DNA from: Mayamaea pseudoterrestris
Taxonomy: Eukaryota
Length of the DNA stretch: 64,000 nt
Direction: 5' to 3'
Assembly (NCBI GenBank): GCA_027923505.1
Contig: BROI01000017.1
Location: 372,001 to 436,000 of the forward strand
The notes below the pieces were generated by a model. It had not been told where the DNA came from. It saw nothing but the letters and a program-made list of their open reading frames with translations, and did no database searches. Within the stretch, counting starts at the first letter, position 1; each line of letters starts with the position of its first letter. Positions 27,817-52,081 of the stretch are shown here, piece after piece. The position numbers were made by a program, and so were the translations under genes.

Positions 27817-28018
27817 ATGTGGGATTCTGGAGAGCCGGAGGAAAGCGGTGATTTGATTGGCCAATGGTGACGTCATCGGATGACGGCATTGGCGCATTGG
27901 TTCCAGAGGTCATGGGTCCTCTCCAAGGATTGCGAAGCAAGCTTGCAGCTTGCTTGTCATTCTTTTGGTCTGTTTGCCTCGAAGCTCTTGTTCGAGGACT
28001 GTAAGATAGATTAAAGTT
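27817..28018 (+). repeat. Split direct repeat A1 (202 bp)
   Basis: Identical to 34988-35187 except for a short patch at about 27934-27948. Confidence 0.95.
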
Positions 28019-28036
28019 TCTTGACTAATCAAGATA

Positions 28037-30190
28037 ATGTCATCCTTCAATACTTGGAACAGCTTCTATTCGCCTGATCGCCGCGAGCGTATCTTCACGC
28101 CGAAATGCTACCAGCGTCTTTCGTTCAATGCCAAGATCTTTTCAAATGGATCCATTCCGGAGCGTTTGCAGACGCTGAGCGATACGCCTTTCTCTCCTTG
28201 GCTTCTAGCGGGAGTGATGGGAGGACGAGTCAATGTTCATCTTTACCATCATCCGCTCATTCCTCTCCAGTATCAAGGCGATCCAAGCGAGGCGTCGAGC
28301 GTTTTCATGTTGCAGGGGAGCTCCGACTCGCTCTTGGTATCGGAGCTCAACGCAAGCTGCCTTCGGCTGATCACTGATCCTGGCGATCCCATCAAAACGC
28401 CTTCCTTTGAGTCTCTATTCGACGACGATGTTTTGGAAGCGGAGGATGTCTCCAAGATCCTTGGATTGCAAGCGGACGACAACACGTTCTTGAACATGTC
28501 AGCATTGATTCCAATTCCTCCTTTTGCCTTTGCGATTATTGACAAGTTTGCGCCAGGACGACACATCAAGGACATGCTCTTTAGCATCATGCGCGCCTTG
28601 AGTACTTGGGACGTTCAATACGGAAGCAATATCCCCTGTCAAGATATCAAGGCGGCCAGCTTCCAGCTTGTTCAATTCCTTTGGACCCTCGCGACCACAG
28701 GAGATTCACCGTCTTCCGTCGTTCAGAAGTTTATCAAATCCTTTCCAGACGTACCAGTCGTCTTGGTCAAGGAAGACGTCCCCAAGGAAACGTTCATGGA
28801 TTTTGAGTCGATCATCAGTCAAGAGTTTCCAGCCGCTGCGACCACCCAGCCCAGTACGACAGTGTCGCCGCCTTCCTCGTCTCCTACAGTTCCCACGCCG
28901 TCCGGCAGTCCCACTCCCGACGGGGTTCCTCCGATTATGACGACTGTACTCCAGGAGATTCTGCAGACGATTCAATCGACATCAGCTCATTCGTCGGAGC
29001 AAAGCAAGGCATTTATCGAAGCGCTTCACAAGCACTCGGAGGAGACTTCACGCGTTGGCTTCCACAAGCTTTTGGAAGAAACTCAACGGATGCTGCTTCG
29101 TTTGGCGACTGATATTGACGGCAACGTTCCCTCGCATCCATCACGTTTCATGCTCAAGCTCTACGGCGACAAGAAGGACATGGCGCACAAGATTCTCCAG
29201 GCGGCCTTTGACAGTCGCAGCTCCACTTACAGTATCCCCAAATCCTTGGCGATGCATATCCATCATGGAGACTTTACAAGCAAGATTCGTGGTGAAGGCG
29301 TGCGCGTATCGGTAATGGCGTTTGCCGCGACTGCCGAGATTTACAACACGGACGAAAGCATGATCCTCGACATGAAACTGGCTGATACCAATATCAGCGA
29401 TGAGACATACAAGAAGGCCTGTACACTCAAGCTTGACTTTCCTTCTTCCGTTGATGCGCTCTCCACTAGTATCTACGATATGGCGACCCTTTTCGATGTT
29501 CTGGGTGGATTTGATGGGGACGACGACGACGCCTGCTACTTTAGCCATCGCCTTCGCCACTTGGCCTACGAGATCAAGCAGCGCACTAAACAAATCATGG
29601 CTTTTATGGTAACCGATCAAGACTACTTGGCTCACTTGAGCAACGCCATTGATGCGCTCATTAACCGCCACATGACGGCGTGTCGCGACAGCCCGTCTTT
29701 GTCCCTCCGTTACGCCGACAAACTGAGCGATATTTTGGATTCAATTGATTCTGAAGCTGGCATTCAAACAGCCATTCCTCATTGCTTGGTAGCTCGCCTT
29801 CCTTCAAAGCGCAAGTATGGCGGTGGCAACGACGGTCCTTCACCCAAGCATCACCATCATGGCGATGGCGGCGGCAACGGCGGCGGCAATGGCGGCGGCA
29901 ATGGTGGTTCTTCTTCTTTTGCTTCCAAAGCTGGTGGAACTAATCCAAATCCTGATCCTGCTTTGACCATCTCCAAGGATTATAACGTGGTCTTTCCGCC
30001 CGATTGCTGGACCAAGGTTCCCAAGGTTTCCGTCAAAGGCAAGCAGGTCGCTCTCTGCCTCAAGTTCTACTGCTTGAACAAGTGCACGATCAAGAAGTGC
30101 AACCGCGCTCACGTCACTTTGAATGGCGCTAAAATGATTGAGCTCAAGGCGTTTGTCAAGATTCAAAAGGAGGCAGCTGGCGACGCCTGA
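28037..30190 (+). CDS. ORF1, gag-like protein of the YR retrotransposon
   Basis: 717 aa, starting 19 nt after A1; Gly-rich tract and C-terminal CCCH finger C-x8-C-x4-C-x3-H (CLKFYCLNKCTIKKCNRAH). Confidence 0.8.
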   Translation: MSSFNTWNSFYSPDRRERIFTPKCYQRLSFNAKIFSNGSIPERLQTLSDTPFSPWLLAGVMGGRVNVHLYHHPLIPLQYQGDPSEASSVFMLQGSSDSLLVSELNASCLRLITDPGDPIKTPSFESLFDDDVLEAEDVSKILGLQADDNTFLNMSALIPIPPFAFAIIDKFAPGRHIKDMLFSIMRALSTWDVQYGSNIPCQDIKAASFQLVQFLWTLATTGDSPSSVVQKFIKSFPDVPVVLVKEDVPKETFMDFESIISQEFPAAATTQPSTTVSPPSSSPTVPTPSGSPTPDGVPPIMTTVLQEILQTIQSTSAHSSEQSKAFIEALHKHSEETSRVGFHKLLEETQRMLLRLATDIDGNVPSHPSRFMLKLYGDKKDMAHKILQAAFDSRSSTYSIPKSLAMHIHHGDFTSKIRGEGVRVSVMAFAATAEIYNTDESMILDMKLADTNISDETYKKACTLKLDFPSSVDALSTSIYDMATLFDVLGGFDGDDDDACYFSHRLRHLAYEIKQRTKQIMAFMVTDQDYLAHLSNAIDALINRHMTACRDSPSLSLRYADKLSDILDSIDSEAGIQTAIPHCLVARLPSKRKYGGGNDGPSPKHHHHGDGGGNGGGNGGGNGGSSSFASKAGGTNPNPDPALTISKDYNVVFPPDCWTKVPKVSVKGKQVALCLKFYCLNKCTIKKCNRAHVTLNGAKMIELKAFVKIQKEAAGDA

Positions 30191-33100
30191 GTAGCCTCCT
30201 CCACGTGGCCGGCGGGAATCCACGTTGGAGGACCTCCTACTAGTTATGACTCGTCTAACTTAGTAGCGTCCAGTTCCAATGCTTCTTTAAACGCTACGAG
30301 TAGGCTAGTGACTCCTACAAACCTCGAGCTGGCGCCACTTTATAATCAATTGCACGCCTTTCGCCAACAACTCGAAACCGCAACGACTTCTCTAACGACA
30401 TCGGTGCGCAGCCCATCATTAACTACAAACCGTCCCCCCAACTCGCCATCAACATCTATAATGGCAACCGACACAACACTCGCGTGTCATGCGGAGGTTT
30501 CTTCTTTCACTGGAGATAGCAGACGGAGCACTGGAGGGCGCTCCAAAGCCAGTTTTCGCGTCATGACGGGATCCTCAATCCCTGAGAGCGACACTGCGCC
30601 TTTGGAGCCTCTTTATGTTCCAACTCGCCGTCTTCCACGTGGAGCGATTTTAAATCAACTAGGAGGCTCTCCTCCATTACCAAGTGGCTCTCCACTTGGA
30701 TCCGGAGGCTCTCCTCCATCGAGCGGCTCTCTGCTCAACCCCGGAGGCTCTCCTCCACCCCCAGGTAGCTCTCTGCCTGGTTCAAGAGGCTCTCCTCTTC
30801 CTTCCGGGAATTCACTCCCAAATCCAGTTGGCTCTCTAACTGGCCGCAGAGGCTCTCCTCTACCCTTTGGAGGCTCTCCTCCTTCTTCTTCGCAGCCACG
30901 TGGCTCCTTGTTGCATCATTCTTTCAAGCCACGAGGAACGCCTCTGTGGGACCGCCTCGTTCCTCCATCAGCGCCACCTGAGAAACCAATACTGGATCCA
31001 ACGGAAGGGGATCCTCCCCGTTCACGCTCCAATTACCGTCATCCAATGTCTCTCCATTTGAGCCAAGACAAGATTGACAACGATTTGAGTAAGTTGCCTC
31101 TGGCGTCGCCAGAGTCTCCATTATCCAGTCCCTTTTCCAAGCCTCCATCCCTCTTCTGGAACACTTTTCAAGCGCTTCACTGTCAACCCTCTTCAGATTC
31201 AATTCATCCTTCTTCTACAGCTCCGTCTGTCCCTCCGTCAGTCGAGCAGCCTACCCTTTACGACGCCATCACCATCGCCGACCCACCATCCTCCATCACC
31301 TTTCACCTTGACGCTACACCAACTGATGAGCTCTCCATTCCATTTGAAGTAATGGATCCTGGCCTTGATTATGCTCCCGCTCCATGGCCAGCCGTCGAGT
31401 CGTCTTGGTTTCAATCCCTGCAACGCGCTCTGCAATGGACGCCTCCTCCTTTGGTTCCATCACCTTTTCGATTTGAGCTAACTGATGCGGCTGCTAACCA
31501 TAACCTGGCCATCCTTTCGGCCAATCACATGGACTTGCGCCACTTGCTCTTCTCCAACAAGGATTTGCCAACTTGCCCCGGCTCCAATTTCCGCCCGATT
31601 GAGCTACTTGATCCGCTCTTTAACGGCCACCCGCGCTGGCTTCGTGTTCGCCAAACTCTTACCACTGGAGCCTCCTTTCCATTGTATCCTATTAATGAGG
31701 CAACGCGCCAGGAAGAATTGGACGCAATCATCGAGTACGGAAACCACAAGTCGGCAACCAAGGAACGCGCAGCGGTACTCGAAACTCTCCAAGAGGAAAC
31801 GGAAAAAGGCTGGCATCTCCCGTTGCCAGTCGACGCTTTACACCAGCTTCCTAATGTAGCTGCTGCTCCTTTTGGATATGTCAAACAACTCAAGCTACAA
31901 GCTGACGGATCCCGCAAGGAAGCCGGTCGAATTACGCACGATCAAACGTTCTGTCAACGGCACGCCGGCACCTCTGTCAACAAGCGAGTCCGGGAGGATG
32001 AATTGCCACCCGTCTTCTACGGATTTGCTCTACAACGCCTATTGAATCGCCTCATTGCAACCAGATTGATCTACAACCAGCTTCCTATCTATTTACCCAA
32101 GTATGATTGGAAATCGGCCTACAAAAACTGCCATTTTGGCCTCGAAACGCTTGTCCAAGCGGCAACCACCACCAAAGGTATCACGACTGACTCCACGCTG
32201 GCGCTTTTAGCACTGAGAATGACGTTTGGCGGGTCTCCCTGCCCTACAATTTTCAGTGATCTATCAGAGACAGTTACAGACGCAGCAAACCATTTGGTTA
32301 GAGACCAGTCCTGGGATCCGGCTTTGGTTCAGTCGCAATTTATTGCACACATTGACACCAATCCAGTCGTGTATTCCGATGCCTCCACGCCGTTCGCTAT
32401 CGCTCGACAAACCACGGTCCAGCAGCTCATTCCAGTTGACGGTCTTCCTTTCTTTGACGTCTTCCTTGACGATCATCTGGGGCTCATTGTTCATACTAGT
32501 AACGACGCCGTTCTTTGTGGTGCTCATGCTATCCCTTTGATGCTCGATGTGATGGGTCGACCGTTGCGAGCGGACGAACCTCTACCGCGCAACGCTTTAA
32601 TTGCAGTCTCCAAGCTCATTGCAGAAGGGTGTTTAACGGAGACTCAAGTAATCCTTGGATGGGAGGTTGATTCGCGCACTCTTATCATCCGTCTACCAGC
32701 TGACAAGCATCGCATCTATTCAGAGGATATTCAGCTCCTCCTGGATCGTCAAGGCTACTCAGTTGCGGCAGCAATCCTCGCCACGCTCTACGGACGACTC
32801 GTCCACGTTGCTGTGGTTGTCACTGAAATGCGGCCTTTCCTTGGCCGTATCCACTCGGCAAAATCTCGCGCTGAAGCTACCACTGGCAAGCATCGCAAAA
32901 GCACGCGATTGACTCGAGCCGAGCGCCAGGATTTGACAGAATGTTTGCGCTTTCTTTCCGTCGCTCGCGACGGCATTGATATCAATCTACTCGTTCCTCG
33001 CTACCCTGACCTCATCGTTCCTACGGACGCTTGCTTGGCTCAGGTTGGAGGCCACGATATGCCTGGTGGTTTTGGCTGGCGTCTGCCAGTGCCGCCAGGG

Positions 33101-33844
33101 TCGCCAGCGCATCATATAAACTTTCTCGAGTTCCTCGGCCCCGTCTGCGGCATTTGGCTCGCCGTGGCAGAAGGCCGATTGAAACGAGGCGATTGCGTTC
33201 TCGCTATTGGAGACAACACTACCGCAGCAGGATGGATGCGTCGGTCGAACTTTTCGGATGAAACGTCAACGCCACAAACACTTTTGTTGGCACGACTCCT
33301 CTCCGCTATCTGCTCGCACCAAGGCATCTGCTTCTACTCGCAATGGAAGATGGGACTGGATAACGTCGTACCTGATCTTATATCACGCGATACATCCAGC
33401 TCAGATGAGTCTCTCACCCAGCTCATCCTCTCTTCATCTCTGGCGCTGCAGGTACCGGCATCCTTCACGATGCGACCCCTGCCCGACAAGATTTTGTCCG
33501 CTCTCTCCTCGTTGATGCATCTAAATCCGAGTTTGTTGGAGTCACACGCGCCACTCACGTTCGAGAAGACATGGCTTGGAAACGCTGGTTGCTCTTCCTT
33601 GAGCGAGTTGGTCTCCAGCACGATCCATTCCTCGTCGACGGAACGCCAACGGACAGAGCGAATCTCTTTATCGCCTTTGTTCAATCCGTCCGTCGAGGCG
33701 ACTATTCAAAGCCAGTTAAAGGACCAAGTACCTTGGTGGCCGGATCTGTCTCTACCACCGTCGGAGGTGTGGCTAAGGCCTTTACGGCCGCTGGTTATCC
33801 CGATCCCCGTCACAACGCGCAAGGAGAGACTCTCCCAGTGTTAG
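30191..33844 (+). CDS. ORF2, reverse transcriptase plus RNase H (in frame with ORF1 after a single TGA)
   Basis: RT motifs RITHD, KYDWKSAY, RMTFGGSPCPTIF, FLDD, ILGWEVD; RNase H motifs TDAC, HINFLEFL, GDNTTA, NVVPDLISR. Confidence 0.92.
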   Translation, partial: VASSTWPAGIHVGGPPTSYDSSNLVASSSNASLNATSRLVTPTNLELAPLYNQLHAFRQQLETATTSLTTSVRSPSLTTNRPPNSPSTSIMATDTTLACHAEVSSFTGDSRRSTGGRSKASFRVMTGSSIPESDTAPLEPLYVPTRRLPRGAILNQLGGSPPLPSGSPLGSGGSPPSSGSLLNPGGSPPPPGSSLPGSRGSPLPSGNSLPNPVGSLTGRRGSPLPFGGSPPSSSQPRGSLLHHSFKPRGTPLWDRLVPPSAPPEKPILDPTEGDPPRSRSNYRHPMSLHLSQDKIDNDLSKLPLASPESPLSSPFSKPPSLFWNTFQALHCQPSSDSIHPSSTAPSVPPSVEQPTLYDAITIADPPSSITFHLDATPTDELSIPFEVMDPGLDYAPAPWPAVESSWFQSLQRALQWTPPPLVPSPFRFELTDAAANHNLAILSANHMDLRHLLFSNKDLPTCPGSNFRPIELLDPLFNGHPRWLRVRQTLTTGASFPLYPINEATRQEELDAIIEYGNHKSATKERAAVLETLQEETEKGWHLPLPVDALHQLPNVAAAPFGYVKQLKLQADGSRKEAGRITHDQTFCQRHAGTSVNKRVREDELPPVFYGFALQRLLNRLIATRLIYNQLPIYLPKYDWKSAYKNCHFGLETLVQAATTTKGITTDSTLALLALRMTFGGSPCPTIFSDLSETVTDAANHLVRDQSWDPALVQSQFIAHIDTNPVVYSDASTPFAIARQTTVQQLIPVDGLPFFDVFLDDHLGLIVHTSNDAVLCGAHAIPLMLDVMGRPLRADEPLPRNALIAVSKLIAEGCLTETQVILGWEVDSRTLIIRLPADKHRIYSEDIQLLLDRQGYSVAAAILATLYGRLVHVAVVVTEMRPFLGRIHSAKSRAEATTGKHRKSTRLTRAERQDLTECLRFLSVARDGIDINLLVPRYPDLIVPTDACLAQVGGHDMPGGFGWRLPVPPGSPAHHINFLEFLGPVCGIWLAVAEGRLKRGDCVLAIGDNTTAAGWMRRSNFSDETSTPQTLLLARLLSAICSHQGICFYSQWKMGLDNVVPDLISRDTSSSDESLTQLILSSSLALQVPASFTMRPLPDKILSALSSLMHLNPSLLESHAPLTFEKTWLGNAGCSSLSELVSSTIHSSSTERQRTERISLSPLFNPSVEATIQSQLKDQVPWWPDLSLPPSEVWLRPLRPLVIPIPVTTRKERLSQC
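30660..30910 (+). repeat. Degenerate coding minisatellite (core GGAGGCTCTCCT; GGSP-P/L peptide repeat) in the ORF2 N-terminal linker
   Basis: About six copies of (G/A)GAGGCTCTCCT at roughly 20-60 bp spacing. Confidence 0.75.
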
Positions 33845-34776
33845 CACGTTTGTTTCGCGGCTATAATAACGAGGATCCTACCACGGGGCATCAACAGGCG
33901 ATTCCGTTGGCGTTGCTCATGAAGATGGCGGCTGAGCATGCCACCTCGGCTGGCTACCGTCATTTTCAATGGATTATTACGCTCGCTTTCTTCTTCGCTC
34001 TTCGCTCTTGTGAATACCTCAAGATCCATAAAGGAGACAAAGTTGAAAGAAGGACTCTTCCTATTCGAGTTTGCGATACGCGGTTCTGGAAAGATGGCGT
34101 GCTCGTGTCACACTCTTCACCTTCGCTCCATCTTTCCAATTCCGTCTCCCTTGTTTTTCGAGCGCAAAAGAATCAAGTGAAGGATGATAGCGTTACGACT
34201 CATAGCTCTGGCGATCCTCGCTTCTGCCCCGTGGTTGCAGCTGCAGAATTAGTACGCTCTGCTCGCCGCCTCATTGACAAGGGACTCATGAGTGAGGATG
34301 ACGACTACTTCTACTATTACGAGGCAGACGACGGCAAGCTTGCTGCTCTCCATACCAAGATGGCGCTAGCCTTTCTACGCGACTTTATCAGCTTTAACAA
34401 TCCCGAGTCCATTGGTTTATCAGTTGACACGATTGGCCTTCATTCTATCCGCGCCTCTGCCGCCATGGCAATGTACATGTCGGGCGTCCCTATTACAACC
34501 ATTCAGCTACAAGGACGCTGGCGCAGTGAGGCCTTTATGGAATACATACGCAAACAAGTTGATCTATTCTCCGCCGGCGTCTCCAAGAAGATGCTCACTG
34601 TCACCAACTTCAACACCATTAGCGCTACTCGCTTTCAACCCTCCACGACTACCACCAACAACAACAACAACAACAACATCCAGTCCACCAGTCCTTCGCC
34701 AGTCTCCACCACCGTTCCATTTACGGGCTACAGGCATTCCTCTTCCTCTGGTCTACGCAAAGCCTGGGGCGCTTAG
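33571..34776 (+). CDS. ORF3, tyrosine recombinase (overlaps the ORF2 3' end by 274 nt)
   Basis: Full catalytic set: FFFALRSCEY (R), RAQKNQ (K), HSIR (HxxR), GRWRSEAFMEY (W, Y). Confidence 0.95.
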   Translation: MAWKRWLLFLERVGLQHDPFLVDGTPTDRANLFIAFVQSVRRGDYSKPVKGPSTLVAGSVSTTVGGVAKAFTAAGYPDPRHNAQGETLPVLARLFRGYNNEDPTTGHQQAIPLALLMKMAAEHATSAGYRHFQWIITLAFFFALRSCEYLKIHKGDKVERRTLPIRVCDTRFWKDGVLVSHSSPSLHLSNSVSLVFRAQKNQVKDDSVTTHSSGDPRFCPVVAAAELVRSARRLIDKGLMSEDDDYFYYYEADDGKLAALHTKMALAFLRDFISFNNPESIGLSVDTIGLHSIRASAAMAMYMSGVPITTIQLQGRWRSEAFMEYIRKQVDLFSAGVSKKMLTVTNFNTISATRFQPSTTTTNNNNNNNIQSTSPSPVSTTVPFTGYRHSSSSGLRKAWGA

Positions 34777-34807
34777 CTCCTGGCGCGGCCTCCTTGCATT
34801 TCCTTCA

Positions 34808-35385
34808 TGGGTTCAGCAGCAGCACACTGCAGCTGGCAAGCATCCCGCTCTCTAGCGCGGATCTAGCCCTGCTCTGCTAGCCCAGCGGGGGTGCTTGGGT
34901 TGCTACACATAGCTACCCAAGTTTTAGCAATCGCCGTCTTTGCGTAGTAAGCGGAAGAATCTGTGGCTGGATATTTAGTTTTTGTTCATGTGGGATTCTG
35001 GAGAGCCGGAGGAAAGCGGTGATTTGATTGGCCAATGGTGACGTCATCGGATGACGGCATTGGCGCATTGGTTCCAGAGGTCATGGGTCCTCTCCAAGGA
35101 TTGCTTCGCAATCTTTGCTTGCTTGTCATTCTTTTGGTCTGTTTGCCTCGAAGCTCTTGTTCGAGGACTGTAAGATAGATTAAAGTTCCCACCCTAGCCC
35201 ATCCCTGGGTTCAGCAGCAGCACACTGCAGCTGGCAAGCATCCCGCCCTTTGGCGCGGATCTGGCCCTGCTCTGCTAGCCCAGCGGGGGTGCTTGGGTTG
35301 CTACACATAGCTACCCAAGTTTTAGCAATCGCCGTCTTTGTGTAGTAAGCGGAAGAATCTGTGGCTGGATATTTAGTTTTTGTTC
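34808..35385 (+). repeat. Terminal repeat block B1-A2-(18-nt spacer)-B2
   Basis: B1 34808-34987 and B2 35206-35385 are each 180 bp and differ by 5 transitions; A2 abuts B1 directly. Confidence 0.95.
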
Positions 35386-39641: not shown

Positions 39642-40849
39642 ATGAAGATCTCCCAAGTGTATTCGACTCTCCTGTTCCTCGCCAGCGCGACGTTGGCGCG
39701 CAGCGTTGATTGCGATTCAGCTTACGCTCTCTGTGGCCAAGGCACGACACCCCAGTGTTTCCTTGAAGATTCACGATTGCCCAAGCCCAAGAAGTGGGGT
39801 TGGCACAACCAGATCACTGGTACGTTCGATGCGACGACAGAAATCACGTGTACCCTGTGGGCAGGCGCGGCAAAGTGCAATACCGACGACAAAACAAATG
39901 TGGGAACTGCAACCATTACATCCGACTCCTTTTCTATCGATTGGGCGGCGGGTTATGATATCGGCGAAGTGCACTTTTACCATGGCACTGTCCCATACCC
40001 AAAGCTCAACGGAGTGAACACCGTCGCGCCCGGTCAGTTTTCCAATGGCTTGGTCTATCCGGCTACGCAGACTTCTTGGGACATTTTTGGTGATCCACTG
40101 ACAATGGGTAATTACTTTATCCTTCACGCAAAAATCTGCCCAGCTGTAAGTAATGTTGTTGAGATGATTAGAACACCGCATATCTTACTCTGCGATCGTA
40201 CTAACTGCCTCTATCTTCATCGCAGGCTCCAAGTGGATCCCCTTCGGCCGTTCCAAGCCCTGGACCTTCCGCCGTTCCAAGCCCTGGACCTTCCGCTGTT
40301 CCAAGCCCAAGTCCTTCCGCCGTCCCAAGCCCATCGCCTTCTGCCGTTCCAAGCCCATCGCCTTCCGCCGTACCAAGCCCAACCCCCTCCAATGTCCCGA
40401 GTCGCACTCCTTCGTTGCGCCCGGTTGGCACATGCCAGGAAGACACAGCCTACGCCAAGTGCGAATTGGCCAATAACCCCGTTTGTTTTACGGATGCACA
40501 GCACTGGGGTTGGACTCACGGAGTGCCAAACATTGGTACCTTCAGCTGCACGCTCTGGGCTGGAGCGGCGCAATGCGACACAAGCGACTTGAAGAAACAA
40601 GCTGGTACCGCCATTTCCACCGACGGTAAGGAGTTTACGATTAGTTTGAACCCCCAGTGGCGCTTGTTGGAGGTTCATTTCTATCACGACGATGTACTCC
40701 CGACCAACGGTGCTGGCAAGGTTGTTTACGCGCCGGGCACGTGGACGGGATACACTGTCGATAACGTGGACTTTACCTTTGATATCGACGAAGGAGGTTT
40801 GCAGACCAACGAATATTTCATCTTGCACACGAAGGTTTGCAAGTATTAG
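39642..40849 (+). CDS. Secreted protein with two copies of a WGW...LWAGAAxC...EVHFYH...APG...FILH domain joined by a PSAVPSP linker; intron 40146-40225
   Basis: Signal peptide MKISQVYSTLLFLASATLA; splicing joins the two ORFs in frame. Confidence 0.8.
40240..40400 (+). repeat. 24-bp coding tandem repeat (CCTTCCGCCGTTCCAAGCCC...), about 6 copies
   Basis: Encodes (PSAVPSP[G/S])n. Confidence 0.9.
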
Positions 40850-46278: not shown

Positions 46279-46625
46279 GAATTAAAATTGTGAGAGGAGA
46301 GAAGAAGATGCTTGTCGACAAACGCTCGAGCGATTAGTCCGCATGCAAACGTGACTTCGTTTTCTCGGACTTTCGTTTTCCGTTCTTCGCATCATATGGC
46401 AGATGTTTTGTGTGTCAATGGCAAATAAAGTACGTTTTCCTACAACCTGACGCACAGTGACGCTTTGGAAAGTACGTGAGTGATCTTGGTCTGACTCGAC
46501 CAGATTTTTACTCACCGTTTGCCAAGCTATAAGCAGGTTGAAGTACAGTAAAGAGTCCGACCATGGCGATAGGTAAACGTACTCGGAAAGGCACAGCATG
46601 CAATCGGAGTAATTGTGGTTCACAG

Positions 46626-47077
46626 TGAAGTACCTATCGTAGGATGATATGTAAATGGAAATTATGATGGTATTTTAAAAGACTGCAATTGAAGATTGCC
46701 TCCATGGCGAGCCATCGCTTTAAAAGAGCGAGGATCGCAGATGTCGCAACAGGATCGCCCATCTTCGCTAATACCCGACGGGCGTGTCCGTTGACTGTCC
46801 GGCTCGCCGTTGAGGCTGGGCCGGTGCATGTGAATCGTGTCAGATAGCACATGAAGTACCTATCGTAGGATGATATGTAAATGGAAATTATGATGGTATT
46901 TTAAAAGACTGCAATTGAAGATTGCCTCCATGGCGAGCCATCGCTTTAAAAGAGCGAGGATCGCAGATGTCGCAACAGGATCGCCCATCTTCGCTAATAC
47001 CCGACGGGCGTGTCCGTTGACTGTCCGGCTCGCCGTTGAGGCTGGGCCGGTGCATGTGAATCGTGTCAGATAGCACA
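46626..47077 (-). repeat. Two identical 226-bp LTRs head-to-tail
   Basis: Direct junction ...TAGCACA|TGAAGTA... with no spacer. Confidence 0.95.
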
Positions 47078-47222
47078 CTCTCCCACACTAAGAGCGACCA
47101 TGAGGGTAGCTGGGGTAAAATGTCTTCCTTCTTGTTTATAAAGTAGCAGCGGCCTTCCTGTCGCACAGGGTGCCGTAATTTAGCTCGATCTTGATGAATC
47201 GAACAAGGGAGCTGCGCAAACC

Positions 47223-50200
47223 TTAAGCGTCTTGCCGATACGGCTTGATACGCCGAATATTAACTCGGTCAGTCACCATAGGCGAGAGGCGAATGGTAAC
47301 CGTTCCATTAACGTGGACTTGTTCAATTGAATAAGGACCGATCCATCGTTCTTCGAGCTTGTTAGGGTCGTATACCTTCTTGAGGATCTGCTCGTCAACT
47401 TTAAAGTCATGAGTCAGTCTCGAACGGTTCGCTTGGAGCAAACGTTCATTGACAATCGCTTCTCGTTTAACAGAGATAGCTAGAATGTCGGCAACCAAAG
47501 GTATATCCAGAAACATGTCGCGTTGAAAGACGACGGCGCCGGGAGAAAGGTTATCAAGAGCTCCACTTGATACAACTCGTGTTGCATGCATTGCTGTCGC
47601 GAGGCATTGATCGATTATATCGTCAGCTTCCATCAAATCCTCGGGCGGATGAGCGTGTACAAGTGTACGAAGCACGTTGCCAATAACGAGGTGACAGCGC
47701 TCGCAAATGCTGTTAGCAGTGGGCGTCTTGGGCGAAGCGGCATGCCATTCAATCCCATTGTGTTCAAGGATGGTTCCAAATGCTCCTTTAAACTCACTGC
47801 CTTGGTCGGCAACGAGTCGCATTGGTCGAGGATAGCGAGAGAGCCAGTTGTCTTCAAAGAGACGGCCGATATGATACGCCGACTTGTCCTGATAGCGAAC
47901 AATTTCGACAAGGTTAGTAACTGGGTCAATCATCGTTAACGCTCTGAAATAACAGTCAATGCCGTTCACTGATACTTTCCATGGGCCGATGAGGTCAACG
48001 TGGACTTCATACCAAGGAGCGACGCGCACGTCTCTCGCTGGCAGCTCTCCATATTGGCGACTGCCTCCTTTGTTGCGTTGGCAAGTATCGCAAGCACCAA
48101 CAAGATGCTCGACGCGCTGCTTGAGCTTAGGATGGTAAAAGTGCTGTTTGATGCTCGTTGTGAGGCGAGTCATTCCAGCGTGGGCCATTGAGAGGTGGTA
48201 CCAAAGAATCAAGCGATCGAGGATCGCACTGGGGATGCAGATTCGCCAGCGTTCGTCTGCTTGGAATACAACAATCTGAACGTCTCCAAGTTGTTTGTAT
48301 TGTATTGTTGTCGCGTCTTGGTTTTGGACTGCGGCCATTAGCGTTGCATCTTCTTGTTGATACTCGGCAATGGTTGAATACGACAGGGGATATCGCCCTT
48401 GTTCGTCGAACTCCGGATGGAGGAGCAGGCACTCTGCAAGCTCTGGTTCGTCCCGTAGGAGACAGTAACCTTCATTAGCAATTGATAGCTCTTCAATTTG
48501 CCTTTCCCCATGGTCGTTTGTTGTTGATTCAATTGAATGTGCAAGAACGCCGCCATCGTGATGGCCATCGTTGACACCGTGTAAGTTGTCATCGTGATGG
48601 GTATGTCGCATGGGCACTGCTGCCTCTTGCGCTTCCTTTTGTCGGGCATCCTGTTGTTGCTTTAAAACATCAACAGGGCTCTCCCCCACGAGAGAGGTTT
48701 CCCTTGCCGTTGGAACCCTTGAAAGAGCATCTGCGACAGTATTAAGCTCCCCTTTGAGGTAAAGGAACTCGGGTCCGAATTCCTCCAAGTACAGACGCCA
48801 TCGAAGGACGCGCTGCGTTTGAAAGGCGGTCAATTCGTGGGTGAGATTTTTATGGTCCGTATGGATTTGCAAACGCGCACCAAGCAGCATCGAACGAAAC
48901 GTTTTGAGCGTTTCAACAATACTTAGCAATTCCTTTTCAATGGTTGTGTAATTGACTTGGGCGCTGTTGAGTTTGCGCGAGAAATAGGCGACCGGAACGC
49001 CATCTTGAAGGATGACGGCGCCAAGTTGATAATCAGACGCATCCGTTTTAATAACGAATGGTTTGTTATGATCAGGATAGCGAAGAAGAACATCGCTTGC
49101 TGCAACTGCTTTCATTTCCTCGAATGCTTTTTGTTGAGGCGCACCCCATTGAAAAGACTTTTTGCCGACGAGATTCGTCAAAGGAGCAAGCATGTGCGAC
49201 CGACGAGGCCACATGGTTCGATAGTAAGTTACAAGACCAAGGAATGAGCGCAACTGCTTGAGATTAGTAGGAGGCTTCATATCCACAATTGCTTGGACTT
49301 TCTTGGGCCAGGGTTTGAGTCCTGTCGGCGTGAGCCAGTACCCAAGCCAGTCGGTTTCCTTGACGCCCCATTCGCACTTGCTTGGATTGATTGTGAAGCC
49401 GCTATCCTCGAGACGCTTTAAAACTGCCTCTAAGAGAGTTAAATGCTCCTTCCAAGTGTCGCTAAAGCAACCGACGTCGTCAAGGTACTTTTCAACGTCG
49501 CGCAATCCTTGTAAAACTTTCTCCATCACCTCTTGAGCAATATCGGGGCTTGATTGACGCCCGCCATTGGCAAGCGCAAGTAACGAAATAAACCGAACGG
49601 CGTTGCAATCGTACAGAGCTCTGCTGCTTTCCTTGTCCAACTGGAAGGTGTAATACTGCATTGAAATATCAAGCTTTGTGAAGAACTTGTACCCGCTGCG
49701 CCTCGCCAGTAGCTCATGGATACGCGGCATTGGGAACGTGCGCCTTTTAATCACTTTATTCAACGCCCGAAAGTCAGAAACAAAGCGTACAGTCTTGTCT
49801 TTCTTTGGTATAATAAAGGTGGGCGCCGCCCATTCGCTGCGGCCGCAAGGCTCAAGTACACCGAGTTCGACGAGTCGATCAAGCTCTTCCTTGAAGGTTT
49901 GCTCATGCACTCGAGGCACTGGATAGTGTCTTTTATGGACTGGTTTAGCTTGTGGATCAATGTCAATGTGGACTAGCTCGTTTGGATATTTGCCAAGCTT
50001 GCCTGAAAAGAGAGCGGGAAAGCGTCGTAAGAGACGTTTTAAATCGGTACGTTGCTCCTCATTTAAATGAGTTGATTGATCGGCAACCTCGTCTGTCGAC
50101 ACTTTGTTATACTTAGCTGATAAAATCTCCTCGCTTGTATGCAGATCTGGTTCAGTATCAGAGAATAGAACAAACCGCTCAATCAAAGAGTCTCTGATTT

Positions 50201-50708
50201 GTTTTGGCCGATTGCTCAAATCCTCCATCGTCACCATTGGAGTCGATTGATTACCCCAATTGATTTGCTTGTCCCCAAAATCAATGGTCAATCCGAGCGC
50301 CGTTAAGACGTCTCGCCCCAGCAGCATGTCATACCTTATATCCTGCTGGAAGACTCGCACTGGAAAGGCGCCGATCCTTTTTGAAGTACTAAACTCGGGA
50401 AGGAACGACTCGGCAAAATCAATCTTGGTAGAGCTCTCCAATTTGCCAACTGCAGTCTGTGATACTAAACGTGGCGCTTTGCACTGAGGCAATCCATGTG
50501 CCGCTCTTTGGCTAATCCAACTTGTCGAGGCTCCTGAGTCGCAAAGGGCGGTAAGCGTGCGTTTGCAACGACTGCCATTAGCTTTACCAACGACAATAAG
50601 TACAACAGGAATGTAATCCGTAACTTTGTCGCTAGTAGCTTGATTAACTTCGTCCGCTACAAGAGCGTCTTCCGTCGCACTGGCTGCCGCTGAGACCGCC
50701 GCCGTATC
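47223..50708 (-). CDS. Gypsy pol (protease, RT, RNase H, integrase); compensating indels in RT at about 49545-49625
   Basis: ALCDSGAS protease upstream of the annotated ORF start, in the same frame; WAAPTF, KLDISMQYY, YLDD; TDASDYQLGA; H..AHAG...CDTC; VDLIGP, DQGSEF, CERCH; GPY. Confidence 0.93.
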   Translation of the reverse strand, partial: DTAAVSAAASATEDALVADEVNQATSDKVTDYIPVVLIVVGKANGSRCKRTLTALCDSGASTSWISQRAAHGLPQCKAPRLVSQTAVGKLESSTKIDFAESFLPEFSTSKRIGAFPVRVFQQDIRYDMLLGRDVLTALGLTIDFGDKQINWGNQSTPMVTMEDLSNRPKQIRDSLIERFVLFSDTEPDLHTSEEILSAKYNKVSTDEVADQSTHLNEEQRTDLKRLLRRFPALFSGKLGKYPNELVHIDIDPQAKPVHKRHYPVPRVHEQTFKEELDRLVELGVLEPCGRSEWAAPTFIIPKKDKTVRFVSDFRALNKVIKRRTFPMPRIHELLARRSGYKFFTKLDISMQYYTFQLDKESSRALYDCNAVRFISLLALANGGRQSSPDIAQEVMEKVLQGLRDVEKYLDDVGCFSDTWKEHLTLLEAVLKRLEDSGFTINPSKCEWGVKETDWLGYWLTPTGLKPWPKKVQAIVDMKPPTNLKQLRSFLGLVTYYRTMWPRRSHMLAPLTNLVGKKSFQWGAPQQKAFEEMKAVAASDVLLRYPDHNKPFVIKTDASDYQLGAVILQDGVPVAYFSRKLNSAQVNYTTIEKELLSIVETLKTFRSMLLGARLQIHTDHKNLTHELTAFQTQRVLRWRLYLEEFGPEFLYLKGELNTVADALSRVPTARETSLVGESPVDVLKQQQDARQKEAQEAAVPMRHTHHDDNLHGVNDGHHDGGVLAHSIESTTNDHGERQIEELSIANEGYCLLRDEPELAECLLLHPEFDEQGRYPLSYSTIAEYQQEDATLMAAVQNQDATTIQYKQLGDVQIVVFQADERWRICIPSAILDRLILWYHLSMAHAGMTRLTTSIKQHFYHPKLKQRVEHLVGACDTCQRNKGGSRQYGELPARDVRVAPWYEVHVDLIGPWKVSVNGIDCYFRALTMIDPVTNLVEIVRYQDKSAYHIGRLFEDNWLSRYPRPMRLVADQGSEFKGAFGTILEHNGIEWHAASPKTPTANSICERCHLVIGNVLRTLVHAHPPEDLMEADDIIDQCLATAMHATRVVSSGALDNLSPGAVVFQRDMFLDIPLVADILAISVKREAIVNERLLQANRSRLTHDFKVDEQILKKVYDPNKLEERWIGPYSIEQVHVNGTVTIRLSPMVTDRVNIRRIKPYRQDA

Positions 50709-51806
50709 TCATTCTTCAAAGACCGCTCCAATTGCTTGATCCCAATCAACCTCCGACTCGCTGTCTTGCACTTGCGCTGGCGCTGGTTCCTCTGCTGTAA
50801 CATCCACTATCATGTGCTGGTCTCCGTCAGACTCTTGAGCAGCTCCGCCTCCATTGTTGCCGCCTCCATTGTTGTTTTTCTTTTTCAATTTCGACTTGTC
50901 GAGTTTGAAACCCGGCTTGTAGCGCGGGCCCTTGGGGTTGCCGAAACACTGCTCCCAAGTGTGGCCGCCATGGTATTTGCACACGTTGGCATCGTTGTTT
51001 GCTTTATGCTTTTTCTTTTGGTTACCGTTCCCATGGTCGTTGCCTTGGCCGCCATTGCCACCGTTGCGACGAGAGCGTTTACCGCTCCGACGGCTGCCGC
51101 CATTGTCGTTCGAGTCGACTGGAGTCCTGTTGCTTGCCTTTAAGTTGATCATGTTATCCAACCATCTTGCAAACTGAATCAAAGAGAGGTCAGCCAAACG
51201 ACTCGTTAAAGATTGTTCCTCGAACTTGCCTTGCAGCCAAGTAGGGACCATCGCGAGCAGGAGATCTTTGATGTCCTCGTCCGTATACTGGACCGCCGTT
51301 GGGTAAACCGCCTCGTCTTCTTGCGGCATATAAGCCATCAACTTGAACATGTTGCGCAGTAGACTGATCGATTGAGTAACCGTGTATCCATCTGGCAACT
51401 TGAGGTTCTTGAGGTACTCTTTTTGTCGACGCAAATCGTCGTCGACGACCATGAGCTCAGAAAGAAAAGCCTTGAGCGACTGGTTCCACGCTGCGATGGT
51501 ATCGTCTGGTAGAACTGATTGATCCCAAGTATCACGAGGCGCTCCAAGGAGACAGAGTCGAAAGGATTCCTTGCGAACCCGCATACGATGAGCCGCTGCT
51601 CCATCGAAGGCGAGTTGCTCCATCGCTCCAATTACCTCCCCGATGACACGAAGGACGGTCACGACGTCTTCATCACTAGCAATCTGTATCTTGCGCTTGT
51701 GCTTGGATCCATCTTGCTTGGTGAACGTGAGATCTTGTTTCGGTAGCGACTCAAACTTGACGCGAGGCACCAAAGGGATCTTGACGTCGACTCCTCTAAT
51801 CAACAT
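50709..51806 (-). CDS. Gypsy gag
   Basis: 365 aa just downstream of the 5' LTR; CKYHGGHTWEQC zinc knuckle; basic/Gly-rich tracts. Confidence 0.85.
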   Translation of the reverse strand: MLIRGVDVKIPLVPRVKFESLPKQDLTFTKQDGSKHKRKIQIASDEDVVTVLRVIGEVIGAMEQLAFDGAAAHRMRVRKESFRLCLLGAPRDTWDQSVLPDDTIAAWNQSLKAFLSELMVVDDDLRRQKEYLKNLKLPDGYTVTQSISLLRNMFKLMAYMPQEDEAVYPTAVQYTDEDIKDLLLAMVPTWLQGKFEEQSLTSRLADLSLIQFARWLDNMINLKASNRTPVDSNDNGGSRRSGKRSRRNGGNGGQGNDHGNGNQKKKHKANNDANVCKYHGGHTWEQCFGNPKGPRYKPGFKLDKSKLKKKNNNGGGNNGGGAAQESDGDQHMIVDVTAEEPAPAQVQDSESEVDWDQAIGAVFEE

Positions 51807-51855
51807 GTTGTTTGTTTCCGTTTTCGATAGACAGTTGTCTATTTTGAATTCAAAG

Positions 51856-52081
51856 TGAAGTACCTATCGTAGGATGATATGTAAATGGAAATTATGATGG
51901 TATTTTAAAAGACTGCAATTGAAGATTGCCTCCATGGCGAGCCATCGCTTTAAAAGAGCGAGGATCGCAGATGTCGCAACAGGATCACCCATCTTCGCTA
52001 ATACCCGACGGGCGTGTCCGTTGACTGTCCGGCTCGCCGTTGAGGACGGGCCGGTGCATGTGAATCGTGTCAGATAGCACA
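51856..52081 (-). repeat. 5' LTR (226 bp)
   Basis: Differs from the two 3' copies by 3 substitutions. Confidence 0.95.

Follow-up and report, generated by a model that had tools for sequence, protein, structure and literature searches.

How does a retrotransposon make its reverse transcriptase (RT) when the coding sequence for this enzyme is joined to the preceding gag gene in one reading frame, and that frame is broken by a single stop codon? The question is raised by an element in the diatom Mayamaea pseudoterrestris, located in a stretch of 64,000 nucleotides (nt) (GenBank assembly GCA_027923505.1, contig BROI01000017.1, positions 372,001 to 436,000 of the forward strand), which as a whole we call the window and whose numbering we use throughout. 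The element is a Ngaro-type retrotransposon of the order DIRS, i.e., one that encodes a tyrosine recombinase (YR), and its open reading frames (ORFs) are a gag-like ORF1, a pol gene (ORF2) for RT and, likely, ribonuclease H (RNase H), and the recombinase gene ORF3. To our knowledge, polymerase expression in YR retrotransposons (DIRS, Ngaro, PAT and VIPER) is essentially unstudied. An earlier inspection of the sequence alone (the original prediction) proposed that the ribosome reads through the stop codon to make a Gag-RT/RNase H fusion. The comparative evidence that we present here, namely conservation of the TGA, covariation of an RNA structure in relatives and selection in one pair of elements, supports this proposal, and we consider it probable that programmed UGA readthrough produces the fusion.

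Gag and pol share one frame, interrupted by a single TGA

Translation confirms that ORF1 ends at the TGA at 30188-30190 and that the same frame continues into the RT-encoding ORF, as originally predicted. Positions 28037-33844 thus form one frame of 1936 positions (717 amino acids, a stop, 1217 amino acids and a stop), in which the TGA is the one internal stop. A hairpin starts 6 nt 3′ of the TGA. Its 5′ arm (TCCTCCACGTGG, 30197-30208) and its 3′ arm (CCACGTTGGAGGA, 30220-30232) form 12 Watson-Crick pairs around the loop CCGGCGGGAAT (30209-30219), with T30225 bulged. The predicted geometry, in which a 6-nt spacer precedes a stem of 12 base pairs (bp) with one bulge and an 11-nt loop, is therefore present in the sequence, and RNAfold recovers the hairpin (53 nt, -22.8 kcal/mol). 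Compared with the rest of gag-pol, the 60 nt past the stop are unusually stable: their predicted energy is -23.8 kcal/mol, where the mean is -11.7 (standard deviation 4.5), and 0.8% of 626 other 60-nt gag-pol windows are equally stable. For the 116-nt junction segment, comparison with dinucleotide shuffles gave z = -1.69. By eye, we saw no convincing complementarity between the loop and downstream sequence of the kind that would make a pseudoknot-like structure.

Other copies of the element bear on whether the TGA is peculiar to the window. A hypothetical Gag protein from another copy (P0013) is 90% identical and lacks 28 residues elsewhere; its C-terminus falls on the same residue (...KEAAGGA versus ...KEAAGDA). 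A variant contig (X1 record 2, covering 29878-30394) has 14 differences from the window, 13 of them listed and one unlisted, and none of the listed differences falls in the TGA, though the unlisted one keeps this from being fully certain; 5′ of the stop, six of six listed differences are at third codon positions. Because P0013 ends at the same residue and the variant contig has no listed change in the TGA, the gag TGA is not a private mutation. A sister copy with a sense codon at this position, which would have spoken against the original prediction, was not found among the copies compared.

The TGA is conserved in distant relatives

To extend the comparison, metagenome contigs were scanned with an alignment of the RT, which gave 227 confirmed stretches, and the best 80 were taken as loci (designated L001 and so on where they need to be told apart). 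The RTs of these relatives are 29-43% identical. Since a YR homologue lies downstream of the RT in 70 of the 80, the loci represent elements of the same architecture. The gag C-terminus and its terminator could be located via gag homology in 38 of the 80.

Gag terminates in TGA in 27 of these 38 relatives, and the in-frame arrangement never has TAA or TAG. Of the 27, 25 have no further stop in the gag frame for 100 codons or more past the TGA, or up to where the contig ends; the other two contigs break off 22 and 56 codons past it. One frame runs all the way through the RT in 11 loci (as L068 and L069 are one element, these amount to 10 separate elements), and it comprises 594-712 codons of gag, the TGA and 965-1196 codons of pol. 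A second type, in which gag ends in TAG or TAA, never TGA, and pol lies in the -1 frame, accounts for nine of the 38 loci, and the other two look decayed. The conservation of frame and stop that the original prediction called for in related elements is thus seen, together with a stem-loop that has compensatory changes (see below). The relatives' Gag proteins are only 20-59% identical among themselves, and the window's Gag can barely be recognised as related (E = 3.6e-4, with 19% identity over 440 amino acids, to that of L025). For this reason we conclude from the alignments that the in-frame TGA arrangement has survived a very long divergence.

A single G-to-A change converts TGA into TAA and keeps termination. 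TGA is nevertheless used in 27 of 27 elements of the in-frame type and in none of nine of the overlapping type, although these counts are not phylogenetically independent. Exclusive use of TGA is the pattern that selection for a leaky stop codon would predict. As the nine loci of the -1 type use TAG or TAA, the leakiest stop codon appears to be kept exactly where passage through it is needed. In a midpoint-rooted FastTree phylogeny of 42 RT sequences (built from rows free of stops with a best match of at least 550 residues, and read without regard to support values), the TGA type occurs on all major branches, including that of the window, and the -1 type forms one nested clade.

Three candidate observations were discarded in this analysis. 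A TGA at position 1001 of L035 was rejected as the gag terminator by gag homology. In L048, the TGA seemed to be replaced by a sense codon; this was rejected because the contig begins about 68 nt past the junction. Finally, a count of stops over the 3011 codons from the TGA to the RT match gave 0 in frame, and 97 and 125 in the two others; it is circular, since the TGA had been defined as the first upstream stop, and we do not use it as evidence.

These data bear on two explanations in which no programmed event takes place at the stop codon. In the first, a nonsense mutation created the TGA in a copy that is decaying, and the hairpin arose by chance. A lone stop in 1936 codons does resemble one early inactivating mutation, and the stability of the hairpin relative to shuffled sequences is modest (see below). 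However, another copy ends gag at the same residue and the variant contig has no listed change in the TGA, 27 distant relatives have a TGA at the end of gag, and the element itself has terminal repeats that are 97-100% identical and three intact ORFs. We therefore regard decay as hardly credible. In the second explanation, UGA is read as an amino acid, either selenocysteine or through a variant genetic code. This would fit with the fact that only UGA is used at the gag-pol position. Yet each gag-pol frame has exactly one in-frame TGA, TGA also terminates pol in six of 13 relatives, and public gene models of M. pseudoterrestris end gag at the TGA, which together make a sense reading of UGA very improbable.

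RNA structures follow the stop codon in several lineages

In nine relatives (L022, L027, L032, L025, L037, L061, L063, L069 and L077), the TGA is followed by a spacer of 7-8 nt and a 10-bp stem that has a bulged G and a loop of invariant UAGC; a conserved CCNCCNGAY comes next. In the alignment of this stem-loop, 93.3% of cells are paired, and both sides have changed in six of the 10 pairs (16 cells). The covariation score, which was calculated for one pre-specified structure, is 0.589, compared with 0.299 ± 0.046 for shuffled alignments, and none of 500 shuffles reaches 0.589. When the partners are slid by 1-3 columns, pairing falls to 32-49%. A covariance model of the stem-loop (R1) found five more junctions, in L021, L062, L043, L052 and L065, and in each of them a TGA stands where it is expected; additional compensatory variants come from L062 and L043. 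In the first four of these loci, the junction is preceded by an ORF of 644-677 codons that comes from a second, tandem copy. These second gag-TGA junctions (L021:6049, L062:6298, L043:5558 and L052:6683) are 3′ of the recombinase gene of the first element, so members of the family often lie head to tail.

Other lineages have other structures. L073 has an 8-nt spacer and a 9-bp stem, and L016 has a 6-bp G/C stem at the junction. L056, which belongs to the window's clade, has a long hairpin 3 nt past the stop, whose 5′ arm, like that of the window's hairpin, begins with UCCUCC, and its 60-nt segment is in the top 3% of its locus. The consensus of the type I readthrough context is CARYYA. In L050, L051, L054 and L066, the stop codon is in the context TGA-CAA-TTA or TGA-CAA-CTA, and it is followed by CGACTAGR ... 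YCTAGTCG with flanking GGC/GCC, which makes a long-range stem of 11 bp that encloses about 60 nt and has one G:C to A:T exchange. At eight of 19 junctions, the stability of the 60 nt past the stop exceeds that of 90% of background windows, and Fisher's combined P is 1.2e-5; in this test the junctions are not independent, L035 is included, and the 60-nt window misses the long-range stems.

A separate observation concerns the frame further downstream in L050, L051, L053, L054 and L066 (junctions at 1358, 2441, 5078, 2016 and 2097, respectively), which all have TGA-CAA-YTA. The frame past the stop is open for 108-177 codons, and the RT then lies in the +1 frame in five of five. This is either a second shift or decay shared by the clade.

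The start of pol is not conserved, and in one pair of relatives the codons before the first methionine are under selection

An alternative in which the UGA is never passed is that pol is translated independently, by initiation at ATG 30461, by reinitiation, or from a separate RNA that is made from a promoter at the junction, in which case the in-frame layout would be meaningless. This would agree with a public gene model (P0002) that begins at the equivalent of ATG 30461, with the weak constraint just past the stop in the variant copy of the window (see below), and with the retrotransposon Tca2, for which a minor promoter in the gag-pol junction is reported (PMC2194720). On the other hand, the first in-frame methionine past the TGA is 28-250 codons away in the relatives and 90 codons away in the window, and these comparisons indicate that the position of a pol start is not conserved.

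Independent translation also leaves unexplained why pol is in register with gag, why the linker is free of stops (in 25 of the 27 relatives, to the extent given above), why the in-frame type has TGA exclusively and the overlapping type TAG or TAA in nine of nine, and why a stem-loop is present. Furthermore, in the pair L069 and L062, we could compare 127 aligned codons past the TGA, all of them before the first methionine. The ratio of non-synonymous to synonymous substitution rates (dN/dS) is 0.35 in the gag frame, compared with 0.86 and 0.89 in the two control frames, which is the signature of purifying selection on the gag frame ahead of any methionine at which pol could start. Amino-acid identity is highest in the gag frame in four of five diverged pairs. 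As far as the data allow the separate start at an ATG to be judged, then, they do not bear out this challenge to the original prediction, and we think independent translation of pol unlikely.

One clade has gag and pol in overlapping frames

The clade of the -1 type has an overlap of 37-274 nt between gag and pol. An invariant AGGAUUUUGC is present in all six members that were aligned, followed by CAGGGCAG, with the complement CUCUGCCCG 20-50 nt further 3′. A canonical slippery heptamer of the form X XXY YYZ is not conserved in this clade. On the basis of the alignment, we regard this signal as a candidate -1 frameshift site with a non-canonical slippery sequence; its stem is invariant and thus provides no covariation. 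The clade supports the general point that pol in these elements is made as a fusion.

A model of UGA readthrough, and the evidence that weighs against it

In the mechanism that we propose, most ribosomes that translate the genomic RNA of the element would stop at UGA 30188-30190 and release Gag. In a minority, in the order of a few per cent, a near-cognate tRNA would be accepted at the UGA and translation would go on without a change of frame, which would yield the Gag-RT/RNase H fusion. With the UGA in the A site, the hairpin 6 nt downstream would be located at the mRNA entrance of the ribosome and would raise the frequency of readthrough. We infer the readthrough by the ribosome, its efficiency and the stimulatory role of the window's hairpin from the comparisons described above.

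Several observations count against this mechanism. The hairpin is only modestly more stable than dinucleotide shuffles (z = -1.94, with 9 of 200 shuffles equally stable). At 6 nt, the window's spacer falls short of those in the relatives (7-8 nt) and in Moloney murine leukaemia virus (MoMLV, also MMLV; 8 nt). The base after the window's stop codon is G, and a CAAUUA-like motif is absent there (among 13 junctions compared, i.e., those of 12 relatives and the window, seven have C after the stop). No sequence homology links the window's hairpin to the covarying stem-loop of the relatives, covariance model R1 has no match in the window, and the window's clade contributes a single relative with a junction, L056, so that support from covariation comes from other lineages. 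With regard to selection, one of seven pairs was informative for dN/dS, five being too diverged and one nearly identical. In the variant contig, five of seven differences 3′ of the stop are at third positions, and three are synonymous and four non-synonymous, which indicates that constraint over the first 60 codons past the stop is weak between the window and this contig. In both X1 and X2, a contig joint leads from 30084 directly to 30196 and so skips 30085-30195 (111 nt or 37 codons, including the TGA), with ends CA..GC and an intervening sequence that is not known. This may mean that gag and pol are fused by an in-frame deletion in some copy without the stop, or just that the stretch has diverged. 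Lastly, in the work on Tca2, the junction alone gave no readthrough in a Saccharomyces cerevisiae reporter, and the mechanism was called non-canonical (PMC2194720).

The last two points could also suggest that the stop codon is bypassed in another way, either by splicing or editing that removes the UGA or by a non-canonical bypass that depends on distant sequences or a trans-acting factor. Tca2 is a precedent for this (PMC2194720), the contig joint skips a stretch in which the TGA is included, and the YR ORF, which has no conserved start and overlaps pol, indicates that unusual routes of expression exist in these elements. However, the 111-nt skip is bounded by CA..GC rather than GT..AG, and it also occurs in X2, a run marked 'DNA?', so it is no intron but either a variant at the DNA level or a stretch that has diverged. 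Moreover, a covarying stem-loop 7-8 nt past the stop, and the CAA-YTA context in one clade, are hallmarks of readthrough by the ribosome. A bypass of some other kind thus seems improbable, and we retain programmed readthrough as the probable explanation of the junction.

A broader proposal, for and against which we find the case about evenly balanced, is that the element belongs to a deep, unrecognised clade of Ngaro-type elements in diatoms and other aquatic protists that make RT only as Gag-Pol by recoding. The ancestral and commonest form would be UGA readthrough with at least three lineage-specific 3′ signals, namely the stem-loop with the UAGC loop 7-8 nt past the stop, the CAA-YUA context with a long-range stem, and the hairpins with UCCUCC arms of the window and L056. 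One clade would have switched to -1 frameshifting on a conserved GGAUUUUGC plus a stem. If this is true, it would be the first programmed recoding in the order DIRS. In that case, a fixed Gag:Pol ratio would be important to elements that use a tyrosine recombinase to integrate, and so, probably, would the assembly of particles.

In any case, the conserved gag-UGA-pol arrangement with a covarying stem-loop is a concrete candidate for recoding, and it suggests that these elements need a retrovirus-like stoichiometry of Gag and Gag-Pol. It would add natural stimulators of readthrough, and an apparent switch between readthrough and -1 frameshifting within one family, to those that can be studied. 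The real product is probably longer than in public gene models of such elements, which place the start of pol at its first ATG. The junction is compact, and it is a candidate for a signal that would give controlled readthrough at a low level in diatoms.

Identity and anatomy of the element

The original prediction had labelled the locus a YR retrotransposon of a diatom, and both labels are upheld by the split repeats, the RT fold, the recombinase residues and the closest proteins. The features of the element are listed in Table 1. Direct repeats at 27817-35385, which are 97-100% identical, are ordered A1-ORFs-B1-A2-B2. Within the first of these, 27817-27944 and 27948-28018 recur at 34988-35115 and 35117-35187 (97% and 100% identity, respectively), and a repeat search found no inverted repeat pairs in the element. 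All three ORFs are intact. The contigs of two sequencing runs split into many variants, with hundreds of listed differences, as is the case for a multi-copy element. From the repeat layout and the domains, we assign it to the Ngaro-type tyrosine-recombinase retrotransposons (order DIRS), as a young element present in multiple copies. Among named proteins, its best matches are hypothetical ones from Mayamaea pseudoterrestris (98% identity for pol, 90% for gag), and P0003, P0004 and P0005 are relatives at 63-78%.

Table 1. Coordinates of the features of the element in the window, and of the aligned junctions of the -1-frame clade in their own loci
Feature	Position	Strand	Remarks
Repeat A1 (split direct repeat)	27817..28018	+	families D7, D9
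ORF1, gag-like, 717 codons	28037..30187	+	
In-frame TGA between gag and pol	30188..30190	+	candidate readthrough codon
Spacer GTAGCC, 6 nt	30191..30196	+	
Hairpin, 12 bp, 11-nt loop	30197..30232	+	bulged T30225
Post-stop linker, low-complexity Pro/Ser/Gly-rich N-terminal part of pol	30191..31399	+	gag frame open; first ATG 30461
RT/RNase H core of ORF2, stop included	31400..33844	+	predicted fold
Tyrosine recombinase ORF (ORF3)	33409..34776	+	ATG 33571, open frame from 33409; -1-frame overlap with the end of pol
Repeat B1	34808..34987	+	family D5; 97% identical to 35206-35385
Repeat A2	34988..35187	+	families D7, D9
Repeat B2, 3′ end of the element	35206..35385	+	family D5
Aligned gag/pol junctions, -1-frame clade	L002:1515-1620, L004:2326-2431, L005:2755-2880, L030:2075-2180, L041:2505-2610, L058:3640-3745		

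At the level of sequence, the first two ORFs are difficult to classify. No Pfam family was found in ORF1 or ORF2 at E values up to 10, and a sequence-profile search of the PDB with ORF2 and ten homologues gave no match. We therefore turned to structure prediction. An AlphaFold model of 31400-33841, made with an alignment, has a mean confidence (pLDDT) of 78 and a predicted template modelling score (pTM) of 0.77. Foldseek matched this model of the ORF2 core to the RTs of MMLV, xenotropic murine leukaemia virus-related virus (XMRV), foamy virus, cauliflower mosaic virus (CaMV), Ty3, human endogenous retrovirus K (HERV-K) and human immunodeficiency virus 1 (HIV-1), with E values from 2e-10 to about 1e-6 and a probability of 1.00, and an invariant pair of aspartates (D357 and D358) lies in an FLDD motif. 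Because the fold search matches RTs where sequence profiles fail, the model identifies ORF2 as a very diverged RT. An RNase H portion likely follows: alignments to full-length HIV-1 p66 extend over about 700 columns, and D543, E577 and D605 are invariant in the expected region, which was searched only jointly with the RT. Past the RNase H region, there is a tail of about 110 residues, for which the model has low confidence. No Pfam family that would correspond to a Dam-like methyltransferase was found in ORF2 at E values up to 10, which is weak as evidence of absence in a family as diverged as this one. In the N-terminal part of pol, short tandem repeats of 21-42 nt at 30662-30881 encode a linker rich in Gly, Ser and Pro.

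A motif C-x8-C-x4-C-x3-H, which resembles a CCCH zinc finger, is encoded at 30056-30112 (Gag residues 674-692), 25 residues before the gag stop. We dropped it as a feature of the family, because the regular expression matched only the window's protein among 14 Gag proteins. Judged by eye, the ends of gag in L005 and L030 have motifs that resemble it.

In ORF3, the residues R145, K200, H291, R294, W317 and Y325 are invariant among 11 sequences. Nine of 11 family members have a weak match to Phage_integrase (best E = 0.001, all below the gathering score), and the best match of the recombinase profile in the PDB is Cre recombinase (E = 0.035). The ATG of the recombinase ORF, at 33571, is not conserved in 18 relatives, and in 17 of them the frame is open for 42-71 codons upstream (265 in L063). 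This upstream extension encodes a conserved peptide (...GVT.GTH...R.W.RW) that overlaps, in another frame, the conserved tail of pol (QVP..F.I.PLP.EI.SWL), and in the window the overlap with pol lies at 33409-33844. A canonical slippery heptamer is not conserved in the overlap of pol and the YR gene. A public model, P0005, joins the RNase H to the upstream extension of the recombinase.

Other features of the window

A second retrotransposon, of the Ty3/Gypsy type with long terminal repeats (LTRs), lies on the minus strand at 46619-52081, with 233-nt repeats at both ends. Its ORF of 1089 amino acids contains the Pfam domains RVT_1, RT_RNaseH, Integrase_H2C2 and rve. Its gag and pol are likewise in one frame across a single TGA (50709-50711), just 5′ of the protease DSG motif, and the 82 nt past this TGA have no unusual structure (z = +1.5). 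A separate array of 24-nt repeats is located at 40205-40413.

Comparison with known systems

Structures that start at least 8 nt past the stop codon stimulate readthrough in MoMLV, alphaviruses and Colorado tick fever virus (CTFV) (PMC13517186), and the spacing found here matches known signals of this kind. In MoMLV, a UAG is followed by a spacer of 8 nt and then a pseudoknot of the H type (PMC13517186). The arrangement described here is like this one in that gag and pol are in one frame with a single stop, a short spacer and a stable RNA structure 3′ of the stop that is itself coding, and the presumed outcome, a minor Gag-Pol fusion, is also the same. It differs in that the stop is UGA, not UAG, the spacer of the window is 6 nt, and the structure is a simple hairpin (12 bp in the window, and 10 bp with a conserved UAGC loop in relatives). 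Unlike gammaretroviruses, moreover, the element is a YR retrotransposon without a protease or a DDE integrase, and there is no sequence similarity to them.

The UGA readthrough of alphaviruses, CTFV and plant viruses, which extended 3′ stem-loops stimulate (Firth et al. 2011, via PMC13517186), resembles the arrangement in its use of UGA and of a stem about 8 nt further on. CAAUUA is the type I readthrough motif of tobacco mosaic virus (TMV) (PMC13517186), and a TMV-type context is present in L050, L051, L054 and L066, with their TGA-CAA-TTA or TGA-CAA-CTA and 11-bp stem. Those systems, however, are RNA viruses, whereas the element is a nuclear retrotransposon, and its own context in the window is UGA-G.

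Tca2, a Ty1/copia LTR retrotransposon of Candida albicans, has a gag-UGA-pol arrangement with a predicted pseudoknot, and its Pol proteins are made from the gag-pol RNA (PMC2194720). Like the present element, it is a retrotransposon whose gag and pol are separated by an in-frame UGA, with a structure predicted downstream. In our case there is comparative evidence, from covariation and the exclusive use of TGA, that the Tca2 work lacked, while for Tca2 there is a reporter experiment and our case is built from sequence.

Ngaro elements have repeats in the order A-pol-B-A-B (PMC3783388). Like those of Cafeteria burkhardae and of fungi, the element has a gag-like ORF, an ORF for RT and likely RNase H, and a YR ORF in this order, the A-pol-B-A-B layout and no methyltransferase domain that profiles detect (PMC3783388, PMC8547959). 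In contrast, the described Ngaro elements have separate or overlapping ORFs, and the available parts of these papers mention no readthrough or frameshift signal (PMC3783388, PMC8547959). The RTs of the Cafeteria elements match PF00078 (PMC8547959), whereas the RT family of the window is too diverged for Pfam RVT_1. A full-text literature search found no description of a readthrough or recoding signal in YR retrotransposons: the Ngaro, VIPER/TATE, DIRS1 and Xenopus papers, in the parts covered, describe separate or overlapping ORFs, and the search did not extend to Goodwin & Poulter 2004 and Poulter & Butler 2015. The kind of mechanism that we propose, stop-codon readthrough to make Gag-Pol, is thus a known one. 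What would be new is the class of retroelement that uses it, the stimulatory RNA motifs, and the switch to frameshifting within one family.

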